Translations under genes and position numbers: made by a program | Notes under the pieces: model-generated | Told to the model about the DNA's origin: nothing | Databases searched by the model: none | What the model saw: only the letters and a program-made list of their open reading frames with translations | From: a virus | Lineage: Duplodnaviria > Caudoviricetes | DNA length: 64,000 nt | IMG/VR virus record: IMGVR_UViG_3300032280_000786 | Location: 1 to 64,000 of that record | Reading direction: 5' to 3' (one strand) | Part shown: positions 1,628 through 62,423 of the stretch, in pieces | Layout of the letters: every line of letters starts with the position of its first letter | Numbering within the stretch: position 1 is the first letter of the stretch

Positions 1628-2290
1628 TTATTTAGAGTTTTTATATTCATCATATACTTTAGAAAACTCTTCATCTGACATACCTTTATACTTTTCCGCA
1701 CCATTTAATATAGCAGCCCAAGCAAAACCAGTCATATTATTAAGATCTACTCCAAACTCTTCTAGGAAATCATCTACTGTCATTTCAGAATCATCACCAA
1801 GAATTCTTAATTTATTTTCTAATTCAATAGATAAATCAATATTTGAATCTTCTTCGTTAAATTCTTCATCTTCTTGAGAATATAGATAATCGTCAAATTG
1901 TTCAACAAAATCATTCTCATCAATTGGATCTTTATAGTAATCGGAATTTTTAAAATCCTCAATTCTATTATAACTTAAATCTCCCCATCCTTTATCTTTC
2001 ATTAGAGATAGTATTAAGTCTTCATCTTCTACAGACTCACCTAACCAAGAAGGTTTACCCATACCATCTTGCCAACCACCTCTGCTATCGTTACTATCAT
2101 CATAACGTTCGTCATCTCTTGGATACATTCCGTCTGGATCTTCTTTACGAGATCTTTTTTCTCTTTCTTCTCTTTTTTTAGCATCTTTTTTAGCACTATG
2201 AGGGAAGTTAGAAATCTGATTTCTTTCAGCTCTTTCTTTATCTTGTTTATCAAGATCAGAATAATCTTCAAATGTTTTTAAGTTTTTCAT
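1628..2290 (-). CDS. Acidic hypothetical protein with capsid-targeting-like N-terminus
   Basis: Starts MKNLKTFEDY; TATATA motif 4 nt upstream of ATG. Confidence 0.75.
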   Translation of the reverse strand: MKNLKTFEDYSDLDKQDKERAERNQISNFPHSAKKDAKKREEREKRSRKEDPDGMYPRDDERYDDSNDSRGGWQDGMGKPSWLGESVEDEDLILSLMKDKGWGDLSYNRIEDFKNSDYYKDPIDENDFVEQFDDYLYSQEDEEFNEEDSNIDLSIELENKLRILGDDSEMTVDDFLEEFGVDLNNMTGFAWAAILNGAEKYKGMSDEEFSKVYDEYKNSK

Positions 2291-2303
2291 AATGTATATA
2301 TAA

Positions 2304-2332
2304 AAAAAATCAAGTTAAAAACTTGATTTTTT
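2304..2332. terminator. Bidirectional intrinsic terminator
   Basis: AAAAAATCAAGT-TAAAA-ACTTGATTTTTT just past the stop of 2336..2551. Confidence 0.7.
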
Positions 2333-2335
2333 ATA

Positions 2336-2551
2336 TTAGATCTTACCTTTGTACTCTTGAACATCATTTCGTACTTCTTGTGATAATCTTTTAAGTTCTT
2401 GCATAACCTTTCTTATTCTAGTTCCTGCAGTCTTGTTAGCTCTGATGAAAAACTTCTCAAAGTCATCTTTCAAGTTAAATTTCTTTCCATCTACTTCTAC
2501 TTCTTCAGTAAGAATTTTAACTAATTGGTCATATTTGTCTAAATATTCCAT
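2336..2551 (-). CDS. Histone H1-like (Hc1 family) small basic protein
   Basis: EKFFIRANKTAGTRIRKVMQELKRLSQEVR resembles the GNKAAGTRARK..LEL.K...E.R signature of Bacteroidota Hc1-family proteins. Confidence 0.7.
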   Translation of the reverse strand: MEYLDKYDQLVKILTEEVEVDGKKFNLKDDFEKFFIRANKTAGTRIRKVMQELKRLSQEVRNDVQEYKGKI

Positions 2552-2618
2552 AGTATTTTATTATTTTTTATAGAATATATATTTTATTTTATCATCTCTC
2601 TTCAATTACTCACAGTTA

Positions 2619-3631: not shown

Positions 3632-3648
3632 CTCTAATTTTTATTTTT

Positions 3649-6600
3649 TTATATTCGTAGGAATGCCGCTCTTTGTACTTCATTTAATGTAAGTCCTGAT
3701 GAACCTGTAGGTCCTGCTGGTCCTGTAGGTCCTATTGGTCCTCCTGATGGTCCTGTAGGTCCTTGTATTCCTTGTATCCCTTGTGGTCCTGTTGCTCCTG
3801 CTGGTCCTGTAGGTCCTATTGCTCCTGCAGGTCCTGTAGGTCCTGTTGCTCCTATTCCAACTCCAGTGCTAACAGATCCATCTGCCATAAGGTATTGAGA
3901 TGATGAACCACCAAGAATCTTAAATCCTGTTGCTCTAACAAAACCACCAACTTGTAATTTACTTCCATCTAAACTACTTGTACCCATAAGAATACTATAA
4001 AAACTACCAACTGACATATTTATATTTTGTGACGCATTGAAAGACAAATCAAATGAAGAAATACTTACTAAATTACCAGCAAATAGACTCATAAATGATG
4101 ACGCATTTATATCTATATTACCTCCTGAACCAATACCAAGGCTATCATTACCATCTCCAAACTGATAGCCAATTTGTGCACCACCACTTCCAAGTGTTAT
4201 AGAACTATCACCAGGTAGAGCCAAACCATTTCCATTGAGTTTAAGTGCTTCTGTAGGTGATATACCACTACCACCACGATTTGTATAAAAAACAAAATCT
4301 GATACTCCTGCATCACCTGTGCCAGTATTAGAAGTTGTAAGTACTTTAATCTGAGCATTTGTATAAGCAACTGAATTATCATCTTTTCCAGTAAATTGTA
4401 TTGTACCTATTGTATTTCCATTAAGAATACTACTACTTGAGTTTCTTATGTCTAATACTCCTCCAGCAGTAGCACCCACTATAACATTAGATAATAATCC
4501 TTGAGTGGGTGTACCTGTGGCACCTGTCGCACCAAAAAATGTTTGAGTATTAAAAGTTTTACTTCCTGCAAATGTTTGTACTCCTGTTGTAATAACACCA
4601 CCAAATAAATCAGAAGCTGGTTGTAGATTTAACACCGTGCCTGTTATTGTAGCACCATTTGCATTTGAAGTTGCACCAATAGCAGACAAGGAGATACCAG
4701 GACCTGTAGGTCCTACAGGTCCTTGAATACCTTGTGGTCCTGTTGCACCAGTTGGTCCTTGAATACCTTGTGGTCCTGTTGCACCTGTTGGTCCCTGTAG
4801 TCCTGTTGAACCTGTTGGTCCAATTGGTCCTTGAATACCAATAGATAATGGTACTAGTATTATGTCATACACATTAGAGAATGTGTAACCCCCATTGACA
4901 TATGTAACTGGAATAGATACATAATTATTCGGTATAATACTTGGAGTTCCATTAACTGTCCATTTTTGATAGTTGTTAGAATTATACTCATCTTGTATAA
5001 TTAAAACATCATTATTATTTATTAAAGCCAAAAACACATCAATATCTATACTATCCCTTGTTAAGTGAGAGACATATAATTGAGTAGAATTTATTTGTGT
5101 AACATTATTCCATATTATTTGTGCATTATTTGGAGGAGGTGTCTGAGTATTAGTTATTGCACTATATCTGTAATAAGAAACTGAGATACCATCATTACCC
5201 TGTGATCCTGTTGCACCAGTAGGTCCTGTAGCACCAGTTGCCCCAGTTGGTCCGGTAGCACCAGTTGCACCTCTAATACCTGTATTTCCTTGAAGACCTC
5301 TCAAACCATTAGATTGCCATGATACACTATATTCTCTATTCGCAATAAGAGATGCAGTAGAAGATGAAACTTGTGTAATTGTTAAATCTAAGGATGAAGT
5401 AGCTCCTATATTCCAAGTTGATGAATTTACTACAAATGTACCATATGTATTATTATTTGTTGTATCTCTAAGTTGTAAGAATACTGGCTTACCTGCATCT
5501 ACATCAGCCTTTAATAAACTTAACCAAGGTGTTGCATTTATATTAGATGCAGTTGTTGATAGATAAATATTACTAAGACTACTTATAGCAGGAAAATTAC
5601 CTGATGGCCAGTTTCCATTAAAAGTTCCATTAGGAACAGGAGAACCACCGATCATATTCCATCTCCATCTAAGTGAATTGGCACCATCTGAACCAGTGGC
5701 ACCTTGAGGACCTGTTGATCCAGTAGCACCTGCAGGTCCTGTTGCTCCTGTGGCACCAGGTGTACCAGGACCACCTGATCCAGTACCACCACCAATAGAA
5801 GTAATATCAACCTCAACTAATTGATTATTTATTTTACCAATTAAATAAGGTGCAGAGTTATCTTGTGGAAGATTACCAATATAAAATAATCCATCTTCAA
5901 TTCCAGTAAATCCATTATAACCTCTATCTAATATATAATTATTAAATGTTGTATTTTTTTGATAGTTACCACTAGAATCTACTATATTATTCTGTCTTGA
6001 CATATTCATTGTCAATGTATCTTGATAAGTACCACTACTTAGTTGCATAGAACTTTGAAGCGAACTTTCAAGAACTATATTAGTCTGATAAGAACCAGTG
6101 TAATTGAATGCATCTTGTTGTGAGTTTATTAAATTTATATTAGATTGATATGAACCACTATTTAAAGAAATTGATTGTTGATTTGAATTATTTAGATCAA
6201 TATTTTGTTGATACGATTCTATTAAGTTTATACTTAGTTGGTTTGAATTACTTAAATATAAATTCGATTGGTATCCATCTTGTATTGTGGAATTACTCTG
6301 ATAAGAATTATCTAGATTTATATTAGATTGATAATTTGTACCAATAGTTAGACTAAATATTTCTTGATAGCTATTATTAAATGTAAGTTTATCTTGGTGA
6401 CTATCTATATTTATTTCTATATCAGTTTGATAAGACCCATTATCAAATATAAAATTACTTTGATAACCAAAATTGATTGTATTTTTTTGATATGATAAAT
6501 TATTGAAAATAATGTTATACTGATTACCAACCATGTTTATATTCTCGTTGTATGAATCTGTGATAGTTTGATTATAAATACGATCTAAAACACCTTCAGC

Positions 6601-7572
6601 ATTTTTTCTACCCCATTGAAATACTTTAATTGGGTTATATAAACTCATATCATTTTCCCAATATAAGATATTATCATAGTTGGTGCTTACTATATTTGTA
6701 TTTCTCTCATTACGATAAATAATTCTATCATTAACAATATCATATTTTACTTCATCATAAGAAATATTATAAAATGAAATATAATTGTTAGGATCAAGTA
6801 AACTCCATTCAGATGTATCTAAATCTATTACACTTAGTGAATCATTAACTACAGAAGTTCCTTTTACTTCCCAAACATAGCCACCCCATACTACTTTATC
6901 TCCATTAACATATGATGAAACAGAAGAATAATCAAAAAATTGATAATCAGTATATTTTGGTGTAAAGAAAATACCAGTACCAACCTCAGATAATTTATTA
7001 TTTTCTAAAGCTTGTATAAATATAGTAGTGCCAATATAACCAGTTGTATATAAGTTTTGATCACATTGACTAACTTTATAAATTGTACCAACAATTAATG
7101 AATTAGTATTAATTAATGTTTGTAGATCTGAACGTACAATTTCAGTTACTGTGGTTCCATTGGCACCTGTTGGACCTTGACTTCCAGTAGGACCTATAGG
7201 ACCTGTTGGTCCTTGTATTCCCTGACTACCTGTTGCACCAGTTGAACCGGTCGGTCCTTGACTTCCTGTTGCACCAGTTGAACCGGTCGGTCCTTGACTT
7301 CCTGTTGCACCAGTTGAACCTTGACTACCTGTTGCACCAGTTGAACCTTGACTACCTGTAGGACCTATTGGACCTTGACTTCCTGTTGCACCTGTAGGAC
7401 CTTGAATACCATCTTGGCCAGCGGAACCGGTTGGTCCTTGTGGTCCTATAGAAAAAGTACCACCACCTAAGTTTAAAAGATTACCAAAACCATCATAATA
7501 TAAACCACCGACAATCTGTACTAATCTTCCAAATGTTCCGCTTACTGTTGCACCAAATAGTGAATTAGACAT
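3649..7572 (-). CDS. Collagen-like tail fibre protein (1307 aa)
   Basis: Four or more (G-X-Y)n blocks (GPTGSQGATG...), a Gln-periodic solenoid and beta-rich distal domains. Confidence 0.85.
7215..7400 (-). repeat. Near-identical 27/36-nt tandem DNA repeats encoding collagen triplets
   Basis: CCTGTTGCACCAGTTGAACC recurs several times at 36- and 27-nt spacing. Confidence 0.8.
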
Positions 7573-8897: not shown

Positions 8898-9506
8898 ATG
8901 GAAGATGTTTTTAATTTTGACGAGTTTTTAAGTGGAGGTTCAACAAAACCACTTATCAAAGAATCTATTAAAGAAGAGGAAGTACCTACTGAAGTAGAAA
9001 AATTTAAAACTCCTGTTGTAGAAAAAGAACTACCAGAACCTAAAGAAGAAAAACAACCTGAGTATAAAGAAACTGAAGAAGTTATGGGTACTCATATTGA
9101 AGAGTTTGTACCAGCTACTGAATCAGTTGAAGATGATACTTTCTATAAACTTTATAAAGATATAAACGAGGAGTTCGTTTGTGATATTGCAATCGAAGGT
9201 TCTTCACCAGAAGATACTTATGCAAGAATCATTGTTGAATCTGATGAATGGTCTTTAATGTTTCCAGGTGAAATAAGAAATGGTAAATGTATCGTTCCTA
9301 TTAAGAAATTAGGAATCTTAAAAGAAGGAGAAATGGGTACAATTAAACTAGAAGTAGTTGCTGAAGGTAACTTATTTATACCATGGCAAGAACAATTCAA
9401 AGTAAAACTTTCAAAGAAAGTAACAGTTTCTCTTAATGAAACAAAACAACAACAAAGAAAACCAATTGTAAATAATAAAGTCGGTGTTAAAGTAAATGTT
9501 AGATAA
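8898..9506 (+). CDS. Hypothetical protein (acidic N-half, beta-rich C-half)
   Basis: 202-aa ORF. Confidence 0.75.
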   Translation: MEDVFNFDEFLSGGSTKPLIKESIKEEEVPTEVEKFKTPVVEKELPEPKEEKQPEYKETEEVMGTHIEEFVPATESVEDDTFYKLYKDINEEFVCDIAIEGSSPEDTYARIIVESDEWSLMFPGEIRNGKCIVPIKKLGILKEGEMGTIKLEVVAEGNLFIPWQEQFKVKLSKKVTVSLNETKQQQRKPIVNNKVGVKVNVR

Positions 9507-9805
9507 TGAAACACTTAAATAAGTATATTCAATTCATAAATGAGAATATTAATCTCTTACAAGATAGTTCTAAAACTGTTGCTCTTGGTAATTGGATTGG
9601 AAAGAAATGTGGTGATTGTGGTAAATCTAATCCTGAAGATTATTGGTTTAGTCATTGGTTCAAATATATACCGAAATCAAAACAAAAGAAATTTATTTGT
9701 ATCAAATGTTTAGAAAAAAGAGTGGGTAGAGAATTAAAAAAATCTGACTTTGAACCATATACACATTATTATAAGGGACAAGAATGGTTTGATAAATTAG
9801 ATTAA
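9506..9805 (+). CDS. Zn-ribbon protein with capsid-targeting-like N-terminus
   Basis: MKHLNKYIQFINE; CGDC...CIKC. Confidence 0.7.
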   Translation: MKHLNKYIQFINENINLLQDSSKTVALGNWIGKKCGDCGKSNPEDYWFSHWFKYIPKSKQKKFICIKCLEKRVGRELKKSDFEPYTHYYKGQEWFDKLD

Positions 9806-10833: not shown

Positions 10834-11925
10834 TTATTCTATATTAAAATGCTTTCTTAATGTTTCAAATGCCATTTCTCTTTGTTTACCAAAGTATTTC
10901 GCAGAACCACTTACTCTTATGATGTTAAGATTTGCCATTACTTTTACAAAGTTAATAACATCTTTTGGAAGTACAATAATGTCTGATGCTTTACACATAT
11001 CAATTATTGCTTTGTTAGAAGGTAACTTTTGGTTTACTTTAGTATCCTCTGTAAAGATAACTTGTAACATTTCTTCGTATAGTAACCATTTTTGATAATT
11101 TGGATCTTTCTCAATCTTATCTCTAAATTCTTTATATGATCTAAACTTATAATATTCTGCAAAGTAAACTCCTGCTAAGATTGTTAACTCAATTAAAGTT
11201 GATATAATTACAAACATTAAAGAGTTTTTACTATTGTCTTCTTTTTGTGTAGAAGATTCAGTTGTTACAGACTTAGTATGCTCTTCTAATTTAGTTTTTA
11301 ACTCTGTATCTTTTTCTTTTATCTTAGTATCTAAATCTGTTTTTTGTTTACCTAAGTCAGCAATAGTTTCTTTTTGATCTTTACTTAATCTTTGTGTAAC
11401 TGCTAAACTTTGTAAATTTGTGAGCATTTCATCCTTAGATTTAAAATCATCTTTTAAACTTTTAATTTCATCGTTGTAAACTTTAGTTATACTATCATTG
11501 TAAGTTTTAATAGTTTCTTTACTTTGTGTTTCTATTGCATCACTTTTTGATGAAAACTCTGCTGCTCCCTTTATCGATGCATAAAAAGATAAACTGATAA
11601 TAAGAATGCTTAAAAGAAAAAGAGGAAGTACTTCTTTCTTTAAACCATTTAATTTTAGATATGATATACTAAAACGATCAAAGATATTCCTTTTTAGAAG
11701 TTCTAACCCACCTAGTAAAAAAATTGATGATACAAAAACAATAGTTAAATTATTGGTTACTACACCTTCAATTATTTTTGATAACATAAAGTATGCCAAG
11801 AATATAGATGCAATATGTCCAAAATATGATAACATTTTAAGTACCGTATTTATAGTTTTATAGTTATGATGAAAACTTTGATTATTTATTGATTCTTCTA
11901 ATTTTTTATACTCATTATATTTCAT
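10834..11925 (-). CDS. Multi-pass membrane protein with coiled-coil loop
   Basis: Three N-terminal hydrophobic segments, a long K/E-rich coiled coil, then a fourth hydrophobic segment. Confidence 0.7.
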   Translation of the reverse strand: MKYNEYKKLEESINNQSFHHNYKTINTVLKMLSYFGHIASIFLAYFMLSKIIEGVVTNNLTIVFVSSIFLLGGLELLKRNIFDRFSISYLKLNGLKKEVLPLFLLSILIISLSFYASIKGAAEFSSKSDAIETQSKETIKTYNDSITKVYNDEIKSLKDDFKSKDEMLTNLQSLAVTQRLSKDQKETIADLGKQKTDLDTKIKEKDTELKTKLEEHTKSVTTESSTQKEDNSKNSLMFVIISTLIELTILAGVYFAEYYKFRSYKEFRDKIEKDPNYQKWLLYEEMLQVIFTEDTKVNQKLPSNKAIIDMCKASDIIVLPKDVINFVKVMANLNIIRVSGSAKYFGKQREMAFETLRKHFNIE

Positions 11926-12553
11926 ATTCTAATTTATCTTTTTTTATGTCTCTATTTATTTTACTACAAAGAGGTTGTAGATTAGTGTAATGATTTAATT
12001 TTATTATTTCATCTTCTGTTGTTGCAATTGAAAGTGGTCTAATATGGTCTATATCCCATCCATAATTAAATTCACCATTATATTTACCATAATTTTCCCA
12101 AGTCATCCAAGGTTCAAACTTGGATTCTAAATATATTTTTAAATCAATTAGTGATATTCCAATTATTATATTTTTATCTTCAACCTTACTTAAAAAGGAT
12201 CTTCTTAAAATTTTACTAATTGATTCTTTTAGTCTAAAAAGATTGTCATTCTTTCTTTTTTTATAAATATATTTTTTAGAGTTATTTTTAACTAATTCCT
12301 TATTATTCTCATAATAGTCTTTTGACTTTATTAAAATATTCTCCTTATTTTGAATATAATATTTTTTACTATATTCTTTTCTATCATTACTTCTATTATA
12401 TTCCTTAAATTTTTCTTGGTTTTTTTCCTTATAATCCTTGTTTATAATATCTTTACAAGACTTACATTGTCCAATGTGACCATCTTTATAATTTTTCCCT
12501 TTGTAGAAATTTTCGAGAGATTTTAACTCATTACAACTTGAACATATTTTCAT
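11915..12553 (-). CDS. HNH-family homing endonuclease
   Basis: N-terminal CxxC..CxxC; WENYG...WDIDHIRPLS...NHYTNLQPLCSKINRDIK. Confidence 0.85.
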   Translation of the reverse strand: MKICSSCNELKSLENFYKGKNYKDGHIGQCKSCKDIINKDYKEKNQEKFKEYNRSNDRKEYSKKYYIQNKENILIKSKDYYENNKELVKNNSKKYIYKKRKNDNLFRLKESISKILRRSFLSKVEDKNIIIGISLIDLKIYLESKFEPWMTWENYGKYNGEFNYGWDIDHIRPLSIATTEDEIIKLNHYTNLQPLCSKINRDIKKDKLEYEI

Positions 12554-19260: not shown

Positions 19261-19294
19261 AAACTATATATTCAAAGAAAAGGTATTCCTAAAA

Positions 19295-19303
19295 TAATAT
19301 ATA
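19295..19303 (+). promoter_or_regulatory. Putative late promoter TAATATATA (back-to-back with a minus-strand copy)
   Basis: 4 nt before ATG 19308; the divergent partner lies at 19264-19271. Confidence 0.65.
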
Positions 19304-19307
19304 AGTT

Positions 19308-20189
19308 ATGAAGTATTTAAAAAGATTTGATGAACGATTAGGTATATCTCAAGACATGGAACAACAAGTCGAAGGTTATATGAAAATTATTAGAGAAAGA
19401 CCTATTTCTAAAGTTTTTAAATTACTTTATCAATGTGATTTAGGTAGTTACTTTTTCAAATTAGTTATTGACTCAAAGATAAGTTCAGAAGGTTTTTTTA
19501 CAGGATCTCCTACCTACATAGGTGATTTAGAGATATATTTAAAAGATAGAGAAGATGAATCTACATTATTACATGAGGTTAAACATTTAGATTATTATTT
19601 AAGAAAGAAAGGTAAAACTAAGAATATCTATAATAGAATGGAGAGATCTATATCTAATAGTGATGAGAAAAAAGTTAGTAAAAGAACTCTAGGATTATTG
19701 GAACATATTTTTTATATCTATGATGAGAATGAATTTCAATCTAAATACACATCATTTTATAAAGAATTTGATTTATTTCTATCAAAACAGAATAAGGAAT
19801 TTACTACAACTGAAATAAGAGAACTATTTTTTGATTATAAAAAATGGAGTGACGATACTACATTTAGTTGGTATACCGTGGCGAGTGACTATAATTTCAC
19901 CTTTGATAAGTTTGTTGATAAAGATGAGTTAAGAGTTGTATTTAATTATATTATTTCAGAACATTCAAGAAAAACTTTTAAAAATCCTTATTTAGATTTT
20001 CTTAGTTACTTGGCAGCAGACATAAAGAAAAATATAAAAATTAGGTTTAAGTTATTTACTGATAGAGAAAAGTTAGAAATAGAAAAAGTAATAAAATTCT
20101 TTGAAAAAGATATAAGTAGAAGAATACAAAAGTATAAAAAAAGAATGTCACGTATAGTAACTTTAGCGTGTGAAAAATATGTAAAATAA
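19308..20189 (+). CDS. HEXXH-motif (zincin-like) protein with capsid-targeting-like N-terminus
   Basis: MKYLKRFDE; STLLHEVKHLDY; downstream ENEFQS. Confidence 0.65.
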   Translation: MKYLKRFDERLGISQDMEQQVEGYMKIIRERPISKVFKLLYQCDLGSYFFKLVIDSKISSEGFFTGSPTYIGDLEIYLKDREDESTLLHEVKHLDYYLRKKGKTKNIYNRMERSISNSDEKKVSKRTLGLLEHIFYIYDENEFQSKYTSFYKEFDLFLSKQNKEFTTTEIRELFFDYKKWSDDTTFSWYTVASDYNFTFDKFVDKDELRVVFNYIISEHSRKTFKNPYLDFLSYLAADIKKNIKIRFKLFTDREKLEIEKVIKFFEKDISRRIQKYKKRMSRIVTLACEKYVK

Positions 20190-20215: not shown

Positions 20216-21589
20216 TTAATCTTCTAATCCTTCTGTTTTCTTTGTTGAAATCATATAGTTAAATCTACTTGATAGATCAAACTTATATTTAGCAGTTAAT
20301 CTACCCGACATCTCGTGACTAAACTTAACTACGATTGTCATCTCTAATAATTTTTTATCATCTAATCCTAAAATCATTTTAACTTTAAAATCATTATTCT
20401 CTTCTTCTTCACTAACCGTAAAGTTTACGTGATAATCAAACTTAATCTTTAAATCATCATAATTTGTACGGAAGAAATCTCTCTCTGGTAAATAGTTGAA
20501 TATATTACCATTACCACTTAAATAATAAACTGGTCTTTCAGTACAACCCATCTTATCAATAAGTACTTTAAATAATTTCATTTTAACTGCACCTTCAGCT
20601 GATTTGAATCCGTCATCTAACTTTTTAATGTCATCTACAAAATTAGATTTTAATGATGTTGTAAATAAGTTTTCTAAGATTTTAGAATTTAATATAACTA
20701 TTTTAACCTCAGACCATTCTTGATAAACTCTTTCTGGATCCATAAAACAATTATCTCTATTCTTCCATATTTCTGACATCAAATCAGGAAATTTAAGAAT
20801 GTTTTTATTGAAATCTTTAATGAATTCTCCTAAGTGTTTGTATTTATGATCTGAATGTCTTAAATCAAAGTACTCAAAGTAACCTAAACTTTCAATTCTT
20901 TTAGAATCAATAAACTTTTCAATGTGTAATTGAATGTTTTTATTTGCATTCTCATATAATATTCTAACCCACTCTTGAGTTAATTTATCCCATTTAGGTA
21001 AGTATTCTTGTTTAAATAGTAAATCTAAATCTTGTCCAATCAATTCTTCTGCAAATGTATTGAACGAAGCAGTTTTTTGAGAGGATAAGTTTTTATTTAA
21101 AAAGAAAGAGTATTGATTACCATTATCTAATTCAATAATAAGATCTTCCTCGTGGTCATCATCTTTACTTAAATTCCAATATACATTTGAGATCTCTTCT
21201 GATGTTAACTTTGTATCTGGTAAAAGTTTATCAATGATACTTCTTGATATTGTTCTTGAATCTATAAGTATCTTCCAATCTTTTTCTATATCAAAAGTTA
21301 GAGATTCAAAAGTACTATTTATTTTACTTGTATCATCATCTTCAACACACTTACCATCTACAAACTTACCTAGTTTTAATCTATTTTTTGCTAATAATAA
21401 ATTTTTTAGGTCTGTTAAGAATATATTTGAATTTTCACTATATCGTGCCTTTAATCCTCTATCTAAAATTGAGTCTAAAAATTCATTATTGATTAATAGC
21501 ATAGAAACACAAATATCTCTTACAACATTTTTAACGGTTGTATTTTCTTTAGATTCTTTAAATAAGTAATATTTTTTAAGCCATTTCAT
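20216..21589 (-). CDS. Hypothetical protein with capsid-targeting-like N-terminus
   Basis: MKWLKKYYLFKE; 457 aa. Confidence 0.75.
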   Translation of the reverse strand: MKWLKKYYLFKESKENTTVKNVVRDICVSMLLINNEFLDSILDRGLKARYSENSNIFLTDLKNLLLAKNRLKLGKFVDGKCVEDDDTSKINSTFESLTFDIEKDWKILIDSRTISRSIIDKLLPDTKLTSEEISNVYWNLSKDDDHEEDLIIELDNGNQYSFFLNKNLSSQKTASFNTFAEELIGQDLDLLFKQEYLPKWDKLTQEWVRILYENANKNIQLHIEKFIDSKRIESLGYFEYFDLRHSDHKYKHLGEFIKDFNKNILKFPDLMSEIWKNRDNCFMDPERVYQEWSEVKIVILNSKILENLFTTSLKSNFVDDIKKLDDGFKSAEGAVKMKLFKVLIDKMGCTERPVYYLSGNGNIFNYLPERDFFRTNYDDLKIKFDYHVNFTVSEEEENNDFKVKMILGLDDKKLLEMTIVVKFSHEMSGRLTAKYKFDLSSRFNYMISTKKTEGLED

Positions 21590-44787: not shown

Positions 44788-45129
44788 TTATTCTGATTTG
44801 GGTAAAATCTTATTTAATTTAATTTCTCTTAATTCTTGTAAAGAAAAATCAATATACTCAGACGAAGATAAACTTATTGAATAACTATTATTAAATGAAT
44901 TTTTAGACTCAATCCTATATCTACCATTCTCTTGTGTAACCTTACAATCTGGATCGATTTTGGCTAGTTTTAATATGTTATTATTGTAATCCCAAACAAT
45001 TTCATATTTACCTATTTCTTTATACTCAAGAAGTTTTTTAATTTGATCTGTTGTATAAAGTTGTAAACCATTTAACGATCGTCTGGCATTTACTTTATCC
45101 TTTAACTTTTTTACAAAATAGTTATTCAT
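44788..45129 (-). CDS. Hypothetical protein
   Basis: 113-aa ORF ending LREIKLNKIL. Confidence 0.7.
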   Translation of the reverse strand: MNNYFVKKLKDKVNARRSLNGLQLYTTDQIKKLLEYKEIGKYEIVWDYNNNILKLAKIDPDCKVTQENGRYRIESKNSFNNSYSISLSSSEYIDFSLQELREIKLNKILPKSE

Positions 45130-45682: not shown

Positions 45683-46783
45683 ATGAAATATGTAAATACT
45701 TTCGAATCATTTAAAACTAAGAGATTACAACCATTGAATGAAGAATTATTAGGTACAGTAATCAACTTTTTTAAAAATATGTGGGCTAAAGCTACTCAAG
45801 AGTTGAAAAAACTTGGAGATAATCCATCATTACAGCAATTAGATCAATGGATTGAGAAAAATCCATTTAATCCTGCTGATGATACTTATGTATTAAAGTC
45901 AGTAATGGAAGAGTTTAATAAAAAACCAACTGCAAATGATCAAGATTGTTTAACACTTATAGATAGCATATTAGATCCTGAAACTGGTGCATTGGGTAAA
46001 CAAGGTATGCAACCATTTTTTGATCAAATAATTAAAGCATTTGGTAATAATGCAGGTCCACTTAATGTAATTCAATATTATATGGAGAGAATTAGAGATA
46101 GAGCTATTAAAGATTATAAATTTGCAGGTGGACCTGATTTAAAAGTTGGACAACCTGTAAAGTTAGATCCTAAAAAGAAAACATTAGGATTAGATGATGC
46201 AACTCACTTACCCGATTTTAAGAAGATTTTAAAGGCAGCAACTGATGATAAGAAAAAGAAAGAAGCTACGATTAACTGGGTTAACAAAACATTAGTTCCT
46301 AGATTAGAAAAGTACACAACTGAAGTAACTGAGGATGAAGTTAACGCTTATTTAAAGACTAAAGGTGTTGAAGTGAGTGGTGATTATAAAGTAGGTGATA
46401 CTGTTATTTATAAGAGAGAAAAATTCAATCAAGCTAATTGGGATGCTTTAACTGATGATGATAAGAAAAAACCAAACGAAGGAAAAATAAATGATTTAGA
46501 GACCAAAGAAGAAATTGGAACTAAAAAGATTTCTAAGATAGAAGGTGAGAAAGTTAGCTTTGAAGGTGCAGATTTTACTAAACTAACATCAGATATTTTA
46601 ATGAAAATAGAAGTTAATGCGGTAGCAGGTCAAGAAGATTTAACTAATACATTAAAAGATCTAAAAACTAAAAATGCTGATGCAATTCAAAAAATAGATG
46701 ATATTTCTAAATTATATATGGATCCTGTTGCGAATAAGGAAAAAATTGAAGAAATTGAAAAAGCCATTGGAGGTGGAGCATAA
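45683..46783 (+). CDS. Hypothetical protein with capsid-targeting-like N-terminus
   Basis: MKYVNTFESFK...PLNE. Confidence 0.75.
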   Translation: MKYVNTFESFKTKRLQPLNEELLGTVINFFKNMWAKATQELKKLGDNPSLQQLDQWIEKNPFNPADDTYVLKSVMEEFNKKPTANDQDCLTLIDSILDPETGALGKQGMQPFFDQIIKAFGNNAGPLNVIQYYMERIRDRAIKDYKFAGGPDLKVGQPVKLDPKKKTLGLDDATHLPDFKKILKAATDDKKKKEATINWVNKTLVPRLEKYTTEVTEDEVNAYLKTKGVEVSGDYKVGDTVIYKREKFNQANWDALTDDDKKKPNEGKINDLETKEEIGTKKISKIEGEKVSFEGADFTKLTSDILMKIEVNAVAGQEDLTNTLKDLKTKNADAIQKIDDISKLYMDPVANKEKIEEIEKAIGGGA

Positions 46784-48151: not shown

Positions 48152-48850
48152 TTATCTTTCCCATCCATTATCTTTATGACTTAAATCCTCATTAACAAGT
48201 TCTTCTAACATTTTAGAAATACTATTATATCTAACTTTTCTACCGTATAAGTTTGTAATATATAATTCTGTTTCACTTACATAAAGTACAAAGTCTAAAT
48301 CTACCGTACTAAAGTAATAACTCACATAAAATTTCACTGCATTACCTACACCAAAATACTCACCACGTTCTCTACTATTAGTATCTACTTTTTTAAGATT
48401 TTCTCCTAAAAACTTTATAGTATTAACTTGTTGTTCATTTTCTGTATAACCTTCTGCCAAATCTTCATCATCATTATCAAATGAGTGTGATGTCGTTATT
48501 GCAAATGTAGTTTGATTTGTAACTCTATTATACCCATAATCATGTACACCTAATAATTCTTGATAAAATTCTCTAGCCAAATCATATTGTTTTTGATTTA
48601 CACCTTCATGATGTTCAAATATAAAATCTAATTGTTCTTGATTAAAATCAAATATACTTTCAGGTAAAGTTTTTGCAAACTCTGTAACACTATTAGTTTT
48701 TCTATATTCAAGAATACTTCTTATTGAAGCCATTTCTTCTTGAAGTTCTGTCATTTGTAATTGAAGATCCTCTAACTTAGCTTCTAATGTTTCTGTACTG
48801 ATTGCATTAAGATAACTTGATTCCTTTATAAACTCTAAATACTTTTTCAT
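48152..48850 (-). CDS. Hypothetical protein with T4 CTS-like N-terminus (start revised to 48850)
   Basis: MKKYLEFIKE directly after TATATATACTTAT. Confidence 0.75.
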   Translation of the reverse strand: MKKYLEFIKESSYLNAISTETLEAKLEDLQLQMTELQEEMASIRSILEYRKTNSVTEFAKTLPESIFDFNQEQLDFIFEHHEGVNQKQYDLAREFYQELLGVHDYGYNRVTNQTTFAITTSHSFDNDDEDLAEGYTENEQQVNTIKFLGENLKKVDTNSRERGEYFGVGNAVKFYVSYYFSTVDLDFVLYVSETELYITNLYGRKVRYNSISKMLEELVNEDLSHKDNGWER

Positions 48851-48895
48851 ATAAGTATATATAAAACTTTTCATTTCAAAATCAATATAAATAAA

Positions 48896-49729
48896 ATGAT
48901 AGACTTATACCAAATCGCTAATGAAATAAGAGTTTTATTAGAAGAAAGAAGAAAAGAACTAAATCTATACTTTATAGAAGATAATCATAAATACTTTATG
49001 AACAATGAACAAGGTCAATCCAAAAGTAATTGGCCATCTGTTTCAAAAGTACTTAAAAGTTTTTATCCACCATTTCCCACTCAGGAAGCATCACTTAAAA
49101 AAGCTAAAGGTGATGTAGTTCTACAAAAGAAACTTATTAAAGAATGGTCTCAAATGGCAGACTATGCTAACAATACCGGAAGTAGAGTTCACTACTTCTT
49201 AGAAAAGAAAATCATTGAACGATTTGAATTAGATAAAGAAGTAAGAGAACCAGAGTTCGATTGCGACTTTGAACAAATTATCACGTCAGATCATATGATT
49301 AATTATGGTGTTCAGTTCTATGAAAAGATGATTAAGAATGGTGCTGTTCTTATTGACACAGAGGTTGTAATGGGTGATCCTGATTTAGGATATACCGGAC
49401 AAGCTGATAAGATTTGGTTAGTAGCTAATAAAGAGAAAACACAATTAGGTATTGTAGTAACCGATTGGAAGACAAATTTTTTAAAAAATTTCGTTGAGAC
49501 AAAGTGGACAACTAGAATGTATGAACCATATGAAGACTTACCCAATACTGCATTAGGTCATTATTATGTACAATTATCACTATATGCAAAATTATTTAAA
49601 AAAATGTTACAAGGAACTAAATATGAAGATATTAAAATAGTAAGAATGATAATTGTGTTGTTAAGTGATAATTCATATGAAGAATACAAAGTACCTATTG
49701 ATATAATAGATAGACAAATTGTTATATAA
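48896..49729 (+). CDS. PD-(D/E)XK exonuclease (Cas4/RecB-like)
   Basis: H.Y, WPSVS, GSRVHYFLE, E.....TGQADKI, VTDWKT, YYVQLSLY. Confidence 0.8.
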   Translation: MIDLYQIANEIRVLLEERRKELNLYFIEDNHKYFMNNEQGQSKSNWPSVSKVLKSFYPPFPTQEASLKKAKGDVVLQKKLIKEWSQMADYANNTGSRVHYFLEKKIIERFELDKEVREPEFDCDFEQIITSDHMINYGVQFYEKMIKNGAVLIDTEVVMGDPDLGYTGQADKIWLVANKEKTQLGIVVTDWKTNFLKNFVETKWTTRMYEPYEDLPNTALGHYYVQLSLYAKLFKKMLQGTKYEDIKIVRMIIVLLSDNSYEEYKVPIDIIDRQIVI

Positions 49730-50276
49730 TTCTATCACCTTTTTTATAGTTATCATCTGCCCACATAGGTTGAAGATTTGTATAGTGACATAATTTATGG
49801 ACATCATCATTATTTTCACATGCTGCAAGTGGTATAATATGATCGATGTGCCAACCCCTAAATCCATAATTTTCCCAACTCATACCTTCCAAAAATTGTT
49901 TTTGAATATGATCTTTTAATTCAGTAGGGGTACATCCTACTATATTAAAAGTTCCATTTTTGATTTTATCAAAATTTGAACTTTTTAAAAAGTGTTTAAT
50001 TCTATTTCTTGTATTGATTTTTAATCTATACAAAATATCAGTATCATATTTCTTCTTAACCCTTATATTTCTTGAAACTCTTACAGAAGATTTATTATTA
50101 TTTTGATAGTTTGTTTGTCTTTCTATTTCTCTTTCTTTATTATTCTCATAATAAATACTATATCGTTTTTTAGTACATTCTCTACAACTATATTTAAGTC
50201 CATCTGGTGCACTTTTATCTTTGTTGAATTGATCTAATTCTTTATCTACCTTACAACTACTACAATTTTTAATCAT
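49722..50276 (-). CDS. HNH-family homing endonuclease
   Basis: CSSC..C.EC; WENYGFRGWHIDHIIPL..HYTNLQPMWADDNYKK. Confidence 0.85.
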   Translation of the reverse strand: MIKNCSSCKVDKELDQFNKDKSAPDGLKYSCRECTKKRYSIYYENNKEREIERQTNYQNNNKSSVRVSRNIRVKKKYDTDILYRLKINTRNRIKHFLKSSNFDKIKNGTFNIVGCTPTELKDHIQKQFLEGMSWENYGFRGWHIDHIIPLAACENNDDVHKLCHYTNLQPMWADDNYKKGDRII

Positions 50277-52128: not shown

Positions 52129-52800
52129 ATGAAACATTTAAAAGTATTTGAAAATTTTGATAAACAAGAAGATCAGTTTGACATTGAAAATGTTATGCTT
52201 TATATGGTCAATGTACTTGACAACTATAAAGTAAACTTCTTTGATGTTGATAATAATATGATCAATTCTAATGATGAAAATATAAATGATTTTCAACTAA
52301 CAAAAGATTTCCATAGTATTAGAAGAAGTAGATTTATGATAGAGATTATGCAAGATAATTCTAAACAACTTAGTATTCACGATATCGCAGAAATTTCAAT
52401 TGAAATGAGTACTACTATAAAACACTTAGAAAGAGAAGGTTGGATTTTATCTAGTTACCACCTTAATCAAACAAAACTTTCAAGTCATTTGAATGGAAAA
52501 GTTGTATTTTATTATATTCATTATACTTTTTCAAAAGAAGATCAAGAAATTGAACCTACTAAAAGTTTACAAGATACTATACCTACTAATACAATATTAA
52601 GAGCATTTAAAAAAGAAGGTATTGAAATTGAAAAACAAGATATTAAACATTTAGATGATTGTATTGAAATTGAAGATTGGTACACTGAGTATCTATCAAA
52701 TAATGAAGTAGAAGATTCTCTTGATAAAATAACAGATCTTTTAGGTGCTACTGAATGGGAATGGTATCATGGAACAAATGGTATAAGATTTCAATTCTAA
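52129..52800 (+). CDS. Hypothetical protein with capsid-targeting-like N-terminus (start revised from 52084)
   Basis: MKHLKVFENF after TAATATATA (52113-52121). Confidence 0.75.
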   Translation: MKHLKVFENFDKQEDQFDIENVMLYMVNVLDNYKVNFFDVDNNMINSNDENINDFQLTKDFHSIRRSRFMIEIMQDNSKQLSIHDIAEISIEMSTTIKHLEREGWILSSYHLNQTKLSSHLNGKVVFYYIHYTFSKEDQEIEPTKSLQDTIPTNTILRAFKKEGIEIEKQDIKHLDDCIEIEDWYTEYLSNNEVEDSLDKITDLLGATEWEWYHGTNGIRFQF

Positions 52801-58082: not shown

Positions 58083-58084
58083 TA

Positions 58085-58902: not shown

Positions 58903-59823
58903 ATGAAAGAAATTAAAAAGTGTAAGTGGTGTAATAAAGAGATAGTTGAACTAAGATCAGATGCTATATTTTGTAGAAGGCTTGTAAAAATATTTACAGA
59001 AGATCTGAAAAAAATAAAAGAGTTAAGAATGAGAGTTTGTAATGTATGTGAAATTGAAAAAGAAATGACTGAATATAATCTTACTAAGGAAGGTAAGTAT
59101 AAATACAAATGTTGTAAGTCTTGTTATTCTATTAAAAGAAAGGTAGGTAGTAAAATTTACTATGAAGAAAACAAAGATATACTAAATGAGAAAAGTAGAA
59201 AATACTATCAGGAAAATAAAGAAGTTATCTATGAAAAATATAAGTTATATCTTACTAATAATAAAGATAAGATAAATGAATATATCAAAGATTGGAGGGA
59301 AGAGAATAAAGAAATTATAAAAGAAAAGAGTTTGAAATATAGAGAAGAAAATAAAGATACTTTAATAGAGAGTAAAAAATTATATTATCAAAATCTATCA
59401 ACTGATGAGAAAGAAAAGTTGAAAGAACAAAAGAGAATAAACTATAATAATAATTTAGAAGAGAATAGAATAAAAAAGAATAACTATATCAAACAAAAAA
59501 TGAATGATCCATTATTCAAATTATGTTTTAATACACGAACTCTTATCAGAAACTCTATTAAAAGACAATTCACTAAAAAATCTAAAAAAACACAAGAAAT
59601 ACTTGGATGTTCGTTTGAAGAGTTTAAGATATATTTAGAAGAACAATTTGATGAAAATATGAACTGGGATAACCAAGGTTCGTATTGGCACATGGATCAT
59701 AAAAAACCTATATCATTGGCAATGACTGAAGAAGAAGTTTATAAATTAAATCATTATACCAATTTTCAACCACTTTATTGGGAGGATAATTTAAGTAAAG
59801 GAAATAAATATAATTTTATTTAA
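58903..59823 (+). CDS. HNH-family endonuclease with a fused partial Zn-finger leader
   Basis: CKWC..RSDAIFC leader; MRVCNVC from 59029; WHMDHKKP..HYTNFQPLYWEDNLSK. Confidence 0.82.
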   Translation: MKEIKKCKWCNKEIVELRSDAIFCRRLVKIFTEDLKKIKELRMRVCNVCEIEKEMTEYNLTKEGKYKYKCCKSCYSIKRKVGSKIYYEENKDILNEKSRKYYQENKEVIYEKYKLYLTNNKDKINEYIKDWREENKEIIKEKSLKYREENKDTLIESKKLYYQNLSTDEKEKLKEQKRINYNNNLEENRIKKNNYIKQKMNDPLFKLCFNTRTLIRNSIKRQFTKKSKKTQEILGCSFEEFKIYLEEQFDENMNWDNQGSYWHMDHKKPISLAMTEEEVYKLNHYTNFQPLYWEDNLSKGNKYNFI

Positions 59824-59834
59824 TATATACTTTA

Positions 59835-60698
59835 ATGAAATATATTAAAACATACGAAGGTTTATTCGACTACTTCAAAAAAGAAAGTAAAGATAAACGC
59901 ACTAAGACTAAACAGATTAAACAAGGTCTTACTAAACTAATAAATGATTATAAGTTAAGAATTGATAATAATTGGTCTCGTACTTTAATTCCTATCAGTG
60001 GTAAAGGAAATACACAACTTAATACAAATGATGGTAAAATTTGGATAAACATAAATGATGATTTTACAGTAGATGTTGCAGGTAATGTTGCTATGCGTTT
60101 TGGCTATGACAAAGATTTACCTTGTAAGTTTAATAGAATAAATGGTAATTTCTTTATTGAGTTAAGTTTTTCTATCGATGATTTTATTGATAAATTTCCT
60201 GAAAGGGTTGAGGGTAAACTAAGTATAACTAATTGTGGATTGGATTCACTAAAAAATCTACCAACAAAATATGTTGGTAAAGACTTTGATTGTAGTTCTA
60301 ATAATTTAGAAACACTTGAAGGATTACCAGAACATATTGGTATTGAAATTAACGCAGAGTCAAATGATATTTATGCATTTGATGGTTTAGAAAATTATGG
60401 AATTACTATTCATACATATCTTAACCCAATCATAAACGTTAAATTTTATGATAAAATTAGTAATGATTATATCAATTTAGAAACACTTATTTTAAGTACT
60501 AGTATTCATAACCGTCATGATTTAAAAGATAGAGATTCAAATCTTGATATATATAAAGCGTGTGATCCAATTCATCCACCTTTAAAGAAAGGAGATAAAC
60601 CTATCATCTATCTTAATAGAATGGAAGCATTTGCTAGTGAACTAGATATAGAATTTAAGGTAACTGATCTTTTAAAACGATACTATGATGTAAGATAA
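59835..60698 (+). CDS. Leucine-rich-repeat-like protein with capsid-targeting-like N-terminus
   Basis: MKYIKTYEG; ITNCGLDSLKNLP..VGKDFDCSSNNLETLEGLP..SNDIYAFDGL. Confidence 0.65.
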   Translation: MKYIKTYEGLFDYFKKESKDKRTKTKQIKQGLTKLINDYKLRIDNNWSRTLIPISGKGNTQLNTNDGKIWININDDFTVDVAGNVAMRFGYDKDLPCKFNRINGNFFIELSFSIDDFIDKFPERVEGKLSITNCGLDSLKNLPTKYVGKDFDCSSNNLETLEGLPEHIGIEINAESNDIYAFDGLENYGITIHTYLNPIINVKFYDKISNDYINLETLILSTSIHNRHDLKDRDSNLDIYKACDPIHPPLKKGDKPIIYLNRMEAFASELDIEFKVTDLLKRYYDVR

Positions 60699-61190
60699 TT
60701 ATAGGAGAACATCTAACGCTCTTTCTACATCAACGAAACCTACTTGTGGATTTACTTTAATAACTTTCCAATCTGGAATTATATCAACTATATCAGAAAT
60801 TTGATCATCAATAACTAAATACTTTGTAAAATGATTACTATTTAACCAATCTTGTATTTCTAAACCTCTGTGTCCTATTGGGATTGGACTACCATCTTTT
60901 AAATGTCCTAATCCGGTTTTACCAATAACTTCACCGATAACACCTCTATCTTTAAAGATTTTTTGAAGTTCTTCTAATGATAGATGTATTCTCCAGTTTG
61001 AAGTAACAACAATCTTAGCGTTGGTTAAAAAGATAACTTCATTTAGATTATCAACTAATTCTTTATCAAATAAACGATTGACACCACGATATACGGGTGC
61101 TACAAGTTTTTTAGACCAATCTAAATCACTTTTATGAGTTCTTAAAACTCCGTCTATATCTAAAAAGATTATTTTTGTTGTGAAGATCAT
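60699..61190 (-). CDS. HAD-superfamily phosphatase (Swiss-Army-knife RNA-repair type)
   Basis: IIFLDIDGVL, IVVTSNWR, RGLEIQDWL, YLVIDD. Confidence 0.85.
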   Translation of the reverse strand: MIFTTKIIFLDIDGVLRTHKSDLDWSKKLVAPVYRGVNRLFDKELVDNLNEVIFLTNAKIVVTSNWRIHLSLEELQKIFKDRGVIGEVIGKTGLGHLKDGSPIPIGHRGLEIQDWLNSNHFTKYLVIDDQISDIVDIIPDWKVIKVNPQVGFVDVERALDVLL

Positions 61191-61201
61191 TTTATTTTTT
61201 A

Positions 61202-61209
61202 CAAATATA
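61202..61209 (-). promoter_or_regulatory. Bacteroidota-type -7 element TATATTTG
   Basis: Upstream of the HAD gene; divergent TAATATATA at 61230-61238. Confidence 0.7.
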
Positions 61210-61262
61210 CAAAAAAGTATGATAAGATTTAATATATAGTATAATAAAAATAAAATACCTAC

Positions 61263-62423
61263 ATGAGAAATCTGTATAAATTCATAGATTTTATAAAAGA
61301 AGAACTTAGAATTGATAAAATGAATTCTGAAGATTTGGAAAGAATAAAGATTGATTTATTAAAAAGAATTGATGAATATAAAGTTTTCATATTAAATAAT
61401 ATAGAATACGACCTTAAAACTAATAAAATTGTTTATAAAGGATTTGAAGAAATAAATGTTGATTTAATAGTAACTGAATTAAATAATGAATTTGGTGCTG
61501 AAGTTATACAAGATTTAAACATTGAAACCTTACTTCTAAAAGTAGAACAACTTTTAGAACTTAAAAGAAGAGATACTAAAAAAAATATCAGAAAACAGTT
61601 TGATGATTTTGCCAAAACAATTGATAATAGAATATCTGTTATTAAAACTGGTGAAGAAGCTCAACACTTTGATGAATTTGAAGGAGAAAGTTCTCTTATT
61701 AAAAGAAAAGAATTTGAGGCAGAGAAATATCATATACAAGTAGAACTTTTAAAACTTCAAGAATGGGTAATAGCTAATAAAAAAAGAGTTGCCATAGTTT
61801 TTGAAGGAAGAGATTCTGCAGGAAAAGGATCTACAATCAAAAGATTTATTGAATATCTTAATCCAAAGGGATTTAGAGTAGTTGCTTTAGGAGTTCCAAC
61901 ACCAGAAGAGAAAGAAAATTGGTTTGCAAGATATGAAGCTCAGATGCCAAAAGAAGGAGAAATTGTTTTCTTTGATAGATCTTGGTATAATAGAGCGGTG
62001 GTAGAACCAGCAATGGGATATTGTACTGAAGAACAATATAAAGATTTTATGGAAAATGTTGTCAAGTGGGAAGAAAAGATGATAAGAAAACAAGATCTTT
62101 ATTTAGTAAAATTATGGTTTTCTATAACAAAAGAAAAACAATTAAAACGTTTTGATTTAAGACAACAAAGCCCTTTAAAATATTGGAAGTTTTCTCCTAA
62201 TGATGCAAAGGTTGTAGATAAATGGGATGTAATAGGTGAATATAAAAATCAAATGTTTACTGTAACTTCAAGTAGAACAACACCTTGGGTAATAATAAAC
62301 TCTAATGATAAGAAGATAGGAATGCTCAATGCAATGAGATATGTACTTTCTAAAATACCCTATGATGGTAAAAATAGAAAAATAAGTGAATACTATCCAG
62401 AAGTAGTAAGTGTATTAACATAA
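61263..62423 (+). CDS. ppk2: Polyphosphate kinase 2 with an N-terminal extension of about 140 aa
   Basis: QVELLKLQ, FEGRDSAGKG, FDRSWYNRAVVEP, R...PLKYWKFSPND, PW.II.SNDK. Confidence 0.93.
   Translation: MRNLYKFIDFIKEELRIDKMNSEDLERIKIDLLKRIDEYKVFILNNIEYDLKTNKIVYKGFEEINVDLIVTELNNEFGAEVIQDLNIETLLLKVEQLLELKRRDTKKNIRKQFDDFAKTIDNRISVIKTGEEAQHFDEFEGESSLIKRKEFEAEKYHIQVELLKLQEWVIANKKRVAIVFEGRDSAGKGSTIKRFIEYLNPKGFRVVALGVPTPEEKENWFARYEAQMPKEGEIVFFDRSWYNRAVVEPAMGYCTEEQYKDFMENVVKWEEKMIRKQDLYLVKLWFSITKEKQLKRFDLRQQSPLKYWKFSPNDAKVVDKWDVIGEYKNQMFTVTSSRTTPWVIINSNDKKIGMLNAMRYVLSKIPYDGKNRKISEYYPEVVSVLT

Follow-up and report, generated by a model that had tools for sequence, protein, structure and literature searches.

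A short N-terminal tag on unrelated late proteins in a huge-phage lineage: a possible head-loading signal of the T4 type

In phage T4, the capsid-targeting sequence (CTS) consists of the first 10 residues of the internal protein IPIII. Residues 4 and 7 were found by mutagenesis to serve targeting, residues 8 and 10 serve processing (PMC9026906), and the protease gp21 cuts after L/I-x-E (PMC9026906). What this signal binds is still called unresolved in the T4 literature (PMC9958956). The phiKZ-like giant phages (phiKZ, 201phi2-1, and SPN3US) load many proteins into the head, where a diverged homologue of gp21, gp175/gp245, trims them after Glu (PMC5694885). Here we describe a short N-terminal tag on otherwise unrelated proteins of an uncultured tailed phage, IMG/VR record IMGVR_UViG_3300032280_000786. 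The stretch analyzed, referred to as the window, makes up the first 64 kb of one 90,205-bp viral contig (28.7% G+C), which IMG/VR classed as a linear fragment and CheckV put at about 27% completeness. A sequence-only reading of the window had listed 14 open reading frames (ORFs) with starts resembling the T4 CTS and had proposed that their products are packaged in the head and injected; the CTS letters that it quoted appear verbatim in PMC8442874. We found that the tag exists, that it is N-terminal and short, and that it is under selection at the peptide level.

The strict pattern, M[KR][HYWN][LIV][KN]x[FY], occurred 18 times in the six-frame translation of the contig, and all 18 matches were at ORF starts, 12 of them inside the window and the other 6 past its end. 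In the related phage genome LR745206.1 (whole genome, 917 ORFs), 64 or 65 of 67 matches were at the starts of real ORFs. Gene calls were simple ORF calls for both sequences. From the internal frequency of the pattern, 0.004 matches were expected at position 2 in the contig and 0.1 in LR745206.1. The motif is also commoner than in shuffled N termini, as the sequence-only reading required. After shuffling of residues 2 to 12, matches in the contig averaged 0.03 and never exceeded 2, against the 18 observed, and in LR745206.1 they averaged 0.17 against 64. When the residue classes were permuted in all 720 orders, the median count was 0, and only the observed order and trivial K/K swaps were enriched. 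A tag profile added about 55 N termini above the 99.9% control level, for a total of about 110 of the 917 ORFs (12%) in LR745206.1. By the same profile, 19 to 21 of the 120 contig ORFs, about one gene in six, are tagged.

Beyond the tag, the carriers were as unrelated as had been claimed. With the tag removed, no pair among 21 tagged proteins reached an E value below 0.05 in BLASTP, and the 64 strict carriers of LR745206.1 fell into 59 BLAST clusters, with 5 small clusters representing detectable paralogues. A single paralogous family was rejected, because similarity did not extend beyond the first 14 residues and the folds are unrelated (Rossmann oxidase, PPK2, NUDIX, and M15 peptidase). Orthologues keep a degenerate tag (K/R, L/I, F/Y, and Y/H/W) while the rest of the protein is down to 33 to 71% identity. 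Third codon positions vary freely within the tags (TAT/TAC, CAT/CAC, and AAA/AAG), and the upstream DNA shows no in-register conservation. In eight orthologue pairs, identical tag residues used different codons in 55% of cases, compared with 42% in the protein bodies. Because synonymous sites are free and the upstream DNA is unconserved, selection acts on the peptide and not on the RNA. An RNA element or promoter cassette was rejected on the same two grounds, and also because several tagged starts lie inside operons.

All 14 starts listed by the sequence-only reading translate as it claimed, and 12 of them fit the strict pattern; 48850(-) and 61263 deviate. The F/Y that it had placed at position 10 was present in only 6 of the 12 pattern-fitting ORFs. 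The deviating starts, MKKYLEFIKES at 48850(-) and MRNLYKFIDFIKEE at 61263, belong to a second variant (class II, KKYxEFIKE-like). The starts at 41316, 48850, and 52129 are internal ATGs of longer ORFs, and an ATATATA motif precedes each one, downstream of the alternative ATG. Most of the tagged ORFs do follow the late motif, with an ATATATA-type sequence no more than 45 nucleotides (nt) upstream in 10 of the 14; the remaining 4 abut or overlap the upstream gene. The tagged ORFs of the window, with lengths in amino acids (aa), are as follows.

1628 to 2290, minus strand: tagged ORF of 220 aa, MKNLKTFEDY, class I; an ATATATA motif ending 4 nt ahead of the ATG; no match to a Pfam or PHROG family.
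9506 to 9805, plus strand: tagged ORF of 99 aa, MKHLNKYIQFINEN, class I head with class II core, I-N-E followed by N; the start and the upstream stop share one base (TAATG).
19308 to 20189, plus strand: tagged ORF of 293 aa, MKYLKRFDER; promoter motif 4 nt upstream; the LR745206.1 orthologue (33% identity) has the tag-like start MKYIQSFNEK.
20216 to 21589, minus strand: tagged ORF of 457 aa, MKWLKKYYLFKES; the orthologue (68% identity) starts MKWLRNFELFKEA.
22382 to 22756, plus strand: tagged ORF of 124 aa, MKHLKNYIKK; promoter motif about 25 nt upstream.
22758 to 23393, plus strand: tagged ORF of 211 aa, MKYLKKYTTYKES, in the unit of the 1815-aa fibre-like gene; the orthologue (71% identity) starts MRYIKSYKTFKES.
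30784 to 30951, plus strand: tagged ORF of 55 aa, MKYIKLFEDI; the start overlaps the upstream stop.
35550 to 36167, plus strand: tagged ORF of 205 aa, MKHIKKFNDDKINEE; promoter motif 20 nt upstream.
41316 to 41873, plus strand: tagged ORF of 185 aa, MKYLKKFNEM, at an internal ATG of a longer ORF; promoter motif between the alternative upstream start and this ATG.
45683 to 46783, plus strand: tagged ORF of 366 aa, MKYVNTFESF; orthologues in LR745206.1 (52 to 57% identity) and LR756502.1 (42%) align from residue 1.
48152 to 48850, minus strand: tagged ORF of 232 aa, MKKYLEFIKES, class II, T4-like; promoter motif 5 nt upstream.
52129 to 52800, plus strand: tagged ORF of 223 aa, MKHLKVFENF; promoter motif 7 nt upstream, downstream of an alternative ATG.
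59835 to 60698, plus strand: tagged ORF of 287 aa, MKYIKTYEGL; promoter motif 5 nt upstream.
61263 to 62423, plus strand: PPK2 enzyme with a 146-aa N-terminal extension, start MRNLYKFIDFIKEE, class II core F..FI.E; Pfam PPK2 at residues 147 to 372 (244 bits).

The LR745206.1 orthologue of the PPK2 protein also has the class II core (...YNFHKFINEE).

The relation of the tag to the carrier fold was tested on one carrier beyond the window, a flavin adenine dinucleotide (FAD) amine-oxidase-like protein (contig 68878 to 70029). Nearly all of its top 120 homologues, at 54% identity or more, start MKWIKLFENF. Among the more distant homologues, 146 of 147 cluster representatives lack the tag, and residue 13 to 17 of the query aligns to their own residue 2 to 7. 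These untagged oxidases start 2 to 7 residues ahead of the Rossmann strand and have the GxGxxG motif at residue 9, not 20. An AlphaFold model of the tagged oxidase, built with 28 homologues, had a mean predicted local distance difference test score (pLDDT) of 92.5. However, residues 1 to 10 scored below 50 and had no secondary structure, and the first strand began at residue 15. In this carrier, the tag is an add-on outside the fold, and the model predicts it to be unstructured in the monomer. A cut after FNE-12 would give the oxidase a start like that of its untagged homologues. A Sec, Tat, or lipoprotein signal peptide was rejected, because the tag alternates basic, aromatic, and acidic residues and does not have a hydrophobic core of 7 to 15 residues.

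The sequence-only reading had also seen (I/L/F/Y)-x-E after the tag, and this feature is widespread. Hydrophobic-x-E occurred within residues 5 to 20 in 88% of the tagged N termini, compared with 38% of untagged N termini (P = 6e-28) and 25% in a deeper window of the same proteins, although this enrichment is partly circular because the Glu is itself a conserved column of the tag. The Glu is at residue 8, 9, 11, or 12 and is followed by S, N, E, A, or G; FNE, LFE, IFE, YNE, and INE are the prevailing endings. In the main class, position 4 is hydrophobic and position 7 is aromatic, and the hydrophobic-x-E is shifted by -1 to +2 relative to the T4 spacing. The T4-like start at 48850, to which the sequence-only reading had drawn attention, is not a one-off. 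It belongs to the class II variant, M-x(1-3)-KKY-x-[EQ]-FI-[KN]-E-[SEN], which has the four residues that are critical in the T4 signal. Class II starts were found at 21 N termini in LR745206.1, against 2.5 expected, and on the contig at 48850(-), in the PPK2 protein at 61263, and in the hybrid at 9506.

The gp21-like protease that the sequence-only reading had proposed to look for is absent from the fragment, but it lies beside a gp23-type capsid gene in all six complete relatives. All six also have a T4-type portal; that of LR745206.1 matched PHROG 213 with an E value of 2e-59. A 707-aa ORF of LR745206.1 (198546 to 200669) matches Peptidase_S77 weakly over its first 160 or so residues, and a Gp23-type capsid protein (94 bits) starts about 80 bases downstream of it. 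The pair is present in the five other complete relatives as well; across the six genomes, the Gp23 capsid protein is 2 to 3 kb downstream of the Peptidase_S77 domain. The domain exceeded the Pfam cut-off in two genomes, and the motifs GEFDHP and SSRAAG are conserved in all. A sequence search of a relative's protease domain against solved structures gave no match.

Behind the S77 domain, the protease ORF of the complete relatives has about 11 tandem 14-residue repeats, YSEY[IL]AEN[LV]DKNI., and then a poly-acidic stretch. It ranked first of 449 proteins for the density of hydrophobic-x-E-small, as would be expected of a scaffold meant for cutting up, like T4 gp22 (PMC9026906). The capsid proteins have a conserved [ILM]xE followed by N about 45 residues from the start, before the Gp23 domain. 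A relative's protease starts MKPVLIIE followed by N, and T4 gp21 has a matching LIE-9 site (PMC9026906). When T4 residues 4 to 10 were compared with all 188,346 seven-residue windows of the LR745206.1 proteome, in what was a post-hoc comparison, the best window was the scaffold repeat YSEYIAE. This result suggests that the tags may imitate a unit of the scaffold.

We then assigned promoters at the operon level. ATATATA-type units contained 90% of the tagged genes, and 2% were behind the host-type TAnnTTTG; for untagged genes, the values were 40% and 21%. The ATATATA-type motif also precedes the portal, protease-scaffold, and capsid genes of LR745206.1. In the contig and LR745206.1 together, the motif ends 4 to 5 nt before the ATG in 41 tagged and 69 untagged genes, with a second mode at 19 to 25 nt. 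Many late mRNAs may be leaderless. Examples of the short spacing in the window are 2291 to 2305(-), 19293 to 19307, 48851 to 48866(-), and 59819 to 59834. The recognized structural proteins (capsid, portal, wedge, and fibres) do not have the tag. Therefore, the tag marks a subset of late proteins and not late proteins generally.

Pfam and PHROG searches of the tagged proteins were almost blank. Only 5 of 108 carriers had a Pfam domain (two NUDIX, one M15 peptidase, one DUF, and one Zn-protease-like), and 108 length-matched untagged controls matched 51 families. The sequence-only reading had expected a payload that includes enzymes. Enzymes do occur among the tagged proteins, but in very few cases, and about 95% have no known domain. 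The carriers are acidic (median isoelectric point of 4.9 versus 5.8) and soluble, with membrane-like segments in 3% compared with 10% of the other proteins. Their genes are clustered in arrays (38 adjacent pairs versus 13 expected). Hydrophobic-x-E is mildly depleted in the carrier bodies, with an observed-to-expected ratio of 0.95 compared with 1.10 in untagged proteins, and the D and K control motifs are not depleted. Such a depletion would be expected of proteins that meet the protease, but the signal is weak. As a separate observation, a tagged 172-aa protein (contig 68026 to 68544) has a retropepsin-like 'Zn_protease' domain (PF05618, 29 bits), and its LR745206.1 orthologue has the degenerate tag MIYLEKFNDW.

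The contig was placed among its relatives by using the baseplate wedge gene as a context marker.

32758 to 34482, plus strand: baseplate wedge gene, untagged; PHROG 219; in an operon with an ATATATA-type promoter motif.

In protein searches, the nearest public relatives were uncultured phage genomes of 634,780 bp (LR745206.1; wedge protein at 74% identity) and 642,428 bp. Genomes of 636, 735, and 462 kb were farther away, and the Lak phages lay beyond those. The contig is collinear with LR745206.1 from 486 to 568 kb, with a median protein identity of 52%; a nucleotide search against phage records gave a single short match. Al-Shayeb et al. (2020) put the four largest genomes in the 'Mahaphage' clade and predicted Bacteroidetes hosts (PMC7162821). 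We infer that the contig is a fragment of a 630- to 640-kb 'Mahaphage' with a Bacteroidota host, and that the relatives' accessions correspond to genomes of that study. The tagged oxidase gene is missing from LR745206.1; a protein 99% identical to the oxidase is on a public 635,274-bp contig, and a near-identical complete genome of the phage probably exists.

Other genes of the window include the T4-type wedge, a collagen-repeat protein, the fibre-like 1815-aa protein, PPK2, and many small ORFs. The collagen triple-helix-repeat protein (1307 aa, 3649 to 7572, minus strand; Pfam Collagen, 119 bits) is presumably a fibre. Five paralogous Cys-rich genes start MK[IV]C..C.. and all match one LR745206.1 ORF (197841 to 198470) at 35 to 43% identity: 11915 to 12553(-), 21576 to 22325(-), 49722 to 50276(-), 58903 to 59823(+), and 63211 to 63918(+). 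One of them overlaps the start of the tagged gene at 21589.

A nucleotide pattern of the tag was run over 11 genomes, with the reversed pattern as a control.

634-kb genome: tag pattern 68, control 1.
642-kb genome: tag pattern 88, control 2.
636-kb genome: tag pattern 39, control 5.
462-kb genome: tag pattern 19, control 2.
735-kb genome: tag pattern 7, control 3.
Lak-A1: tag pattern 7, control 2.
Five cultured jumbo Bacteroidota-type phages: tag pattern 1 to 2 each, control 0 to 1 each.

Judged by these counts against the control, the tag is specific to a subclade.

A second motif, R[DE]xK[IL]xx[IL]L, was found no more than 4 residues from the C terminus in 78 of the 917 ORFs of LR745206.1 and 9 of the 120 ORFs of the contig, where about 1 was expected. 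Its carriers on the contig are as follows.

Window 44788 to 45129, minus strand: C-terminal-motif carrier.
Contig 66943 to 67404, 73633 to 73914, 73911 to 74099, and 75337 to 77163, all minus strand: C-terminal-motif carriers.
82603 to 83103 (minus), 84305 to 84550 (minus), 87006 to 87263 (plus), and 87570 to 88091 (plus): C-terminal-motif carriers.

With a median length of 105 aa, these proteins are small, and they form a set disjoint from the N-tagged proteins (one overlap; P = 1e-4). The host-type TAnnTTTG precedes 41% of them, a bias toward early promoters.

We suggest, tentatively and at slightly short of an even chance, that the tag is the N-terminal address tag of a T4-type head-assembly system, used for T4-like head loading on an unprecedented scale. 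The tagged genes would be transcribed late from the phage promoter motif that head genes also have. The first 10 to 13 residues, in which positions 3/4, 7, and 10/11 are hydrophobic or aromatic, would not be part of the fold. They would anchor their protein to the scaffolding core as the gp23-like shell closes around it, and the likely docking surface would be the YSEY[IL]AEN repeats fused to the prohead protease. The gp21-like S77 protease would cut after the Glu of hydrophobic-x-Glu at residues 8 to 12, and the cut would free the mature protein inside the head, from which it would leave with the DNA at infection. Of the explanations considered, head loading has the best support. We count in its favor the restriction of the tag to N termini, the selection on the peptide, the position outside the fold, the T4-type head module of the relatives, the promoter class, the cargo-like properties of the carriers (unrelated, soluble, poor in known domains, and arranged in arrays), the T4 precedent, and the fact that hydrophobic-x-E-small is common to the tags, the scaffold repeats, and the capsid propeptide.

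Several points weigh against head loading. The scale, about 12% of the genes and more than 100 proteins, is unprecedented. The resemblance that the sequence-only reading saw between the main tag (MKYLKxF...) and the T4 CTS letters was not significant; the position-specific scoring matrix score was -13 bits, and 13 to 27% of controls scored as high. The hydrophobic-x-E enrichment is partly circular, as stated above. Neither the S77 protease gene nor the gp23 gene was found on the 90-kb fragment, and the phage's own head genes are presumed from its relatives. The same protease and capsid genes occur in the 735-kb relative and in Lak, yet tags of the present pattern are few there. The tag was absent from the cultured phages MaF61, pT24, PTm1, PAU, and MA9V-1 in the pattern scan, which leaves no cultured carrier. 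Co-regulation with the head genes is weak evidence, because the late motif also serves 40% of untagged genes. Acidic carriers fit poorly with lying against packed DNA. Finally, the C-terminal motif on early proteins indicates that the clade also uses terminal tags for a purpose that cannot be capsid loading.

The tag might instead dock proteins to another late partner or place, such as a phage chaperone or hub protein, the membrane, or a compartment for assembly or replication, with hydrophobic-x-Glu as part of a binding helix. We consider this explanation, the main rival to head loading, unlikely, but several points favor it. Any partner-binding peptide would be conserved, exposed, and unstructured in the monomer, as the tag is, and the placing of basic and aromatic residues on a single face would also fit a helix lying in the membrane plane. 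Few tags of the main pattern occur in some relatives that share the head module. This explanation also gains weight because of the disjoint C-terminal motif on early-biased proteins, which must have a noncapsid role. However, it leaves unexplained why the tag, the 11 or so protease-scaffold repeats, and the capsid propeptide have hydrophobic-x-E-small in common, and why class II copies the four critical T4 residues, and the analysis yielded no candidate for the partner.

A role of the N-terminal codons or peptide in setting expression or lifetime is improbable. The start could be a translation-start optimum for leaderless or nearly leaderless late mRNAs, or a stability or degradation signal. 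The promoter motif 4 to 5 nt before the ATG in 41 tagged genes would fit such transcripts, and the tag is rich in residues with A/U-rich codons (K, Y, L, I, F, and N). However, synonymous sites are unconstrained, 69 untagged genes have the same spacing, and several tagged genes are internal to operons, without an adjacent promoter. A single residue order was enriched among the 720 class permutations, and His (CAY) and Trp (TGG) at position 3 do not have A/U-only codons.

It is very improbable that the shared start is a functionless relic of new genes reusing a 5' end through recombination or duplication. In T-even phages, conserved signal-coding DNA is thought to aid cassette exchange, which we count for this explanation, as we do the clustering of tagged genes in arrays and the few detectable paralogues (five small clusters). 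However, residue classes are kept while nucleotide identity is low, and the tag is kept down to 54% identity in hundreds of oxidase homologues and across genomes with 52% median protein identity. A relic would also not account for fusion to unrelated folds (Rossmann oxidase, PPK2, NUDIX, and M15 peptidase). Chance production of the pattern by an A+T-rich genome (28.7% G+C) is refuted by the shuffles (18 and 64 observed versus 0.03 and 0.17) and by the location of all contig matches at ORF starts.

Should the tag prove to be a head-loading signal, sequence alone would reveal which proteins uncultivated huge phages package and inject. This would give hundreds of candidate host-takeover or anti-defence proteins per genome, and capsid cargo would exceed 10% of phage gene content. 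It would also tie the T4 signal to the scaffold-repeat motif, a testable idea of the binding partner of that signal. A broader proposal, which we regard as doubtful, is that a subclade of the largest known phages (630 to 640 kb) turned the T4 principle into an address system for general use. In each genome, upwards of 100 late proteins, fast-evolving, mostly acidic, and without domains, would dock on the scaffold together with a few enzymes. After trimming behind the Glu, they would be packed alongside the DNA and enter the host as a takeover and anti-defence arsenal, and a separate C-terminal tag would send a disjoint early set elsewhere. Were the tagged proteins bound for some place other than the capsid, the presence of two disjoint terminal tags, one on late and one on early proteins, would still point to a protein-sorting logic that has not been described in these phages. 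We found no paper that links capsid-targeting sequences with huge phages or describes the present tag.

Three known systems can be compared with the tag. Like the cargo-loading peptides of encapsulins, it is a short terminal peptide on diverse proteins, and those peptides send diverse enzymes inside an HK97-fold shell. However, the encapsulin peptide is usually C-terminal, has another sequence, and is not removed by proteolysis, and the encapsulin is a cellular compartment and not a virion. The phiKZ-like phages also have conserved N termini, between diverged paralogues (PMC5694885). Their propeptides are mostly longer than 100 residues with the motif S/A-x-E or A-x-E, and they have no short tag common to dozens of unrelated proteins, whereas the present tag has 10 to 13 residues with a hydrophobic residue three positions before the putative cut. 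A phiKZ-type long propeptide was rejected, because the Glu is at residues 8 to 12 and the residue three places ahead of it is F, L, I, or Y.

The T4 CTS (IPII/IPIII, IPI, and Alt) differs in scale, with a handful of carriers compared with about 110 per genome (12% of genes) here. In the main variant, position 3 (Tyr/His) and position 5 (Lys) are strongly conserved and have no counterpart in T4. The Glu position is variable (8, 9, 11, or 12), the protease carries a fused repeat scaffold, the predicted host belongs to the Bacteroidota, and the tag is known here from genes alone. The likenesses begin with the form of the signal, since both are N-terminal peptides of about 10 residues on otherwise unrelated proteins, with an M-K start, a hydrophobic residue at position 4, an aromatic residue at position 7, and then hydrophobic-x-Glu. 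In the relatives, head genes of the gp20, gp21, and gp23 types follow the T4 order. At 7 of 10 positions, the class II variant, KKYxEFIKE followed by S, has the T4 letters, with Y..FI.E at the T4 spacing.

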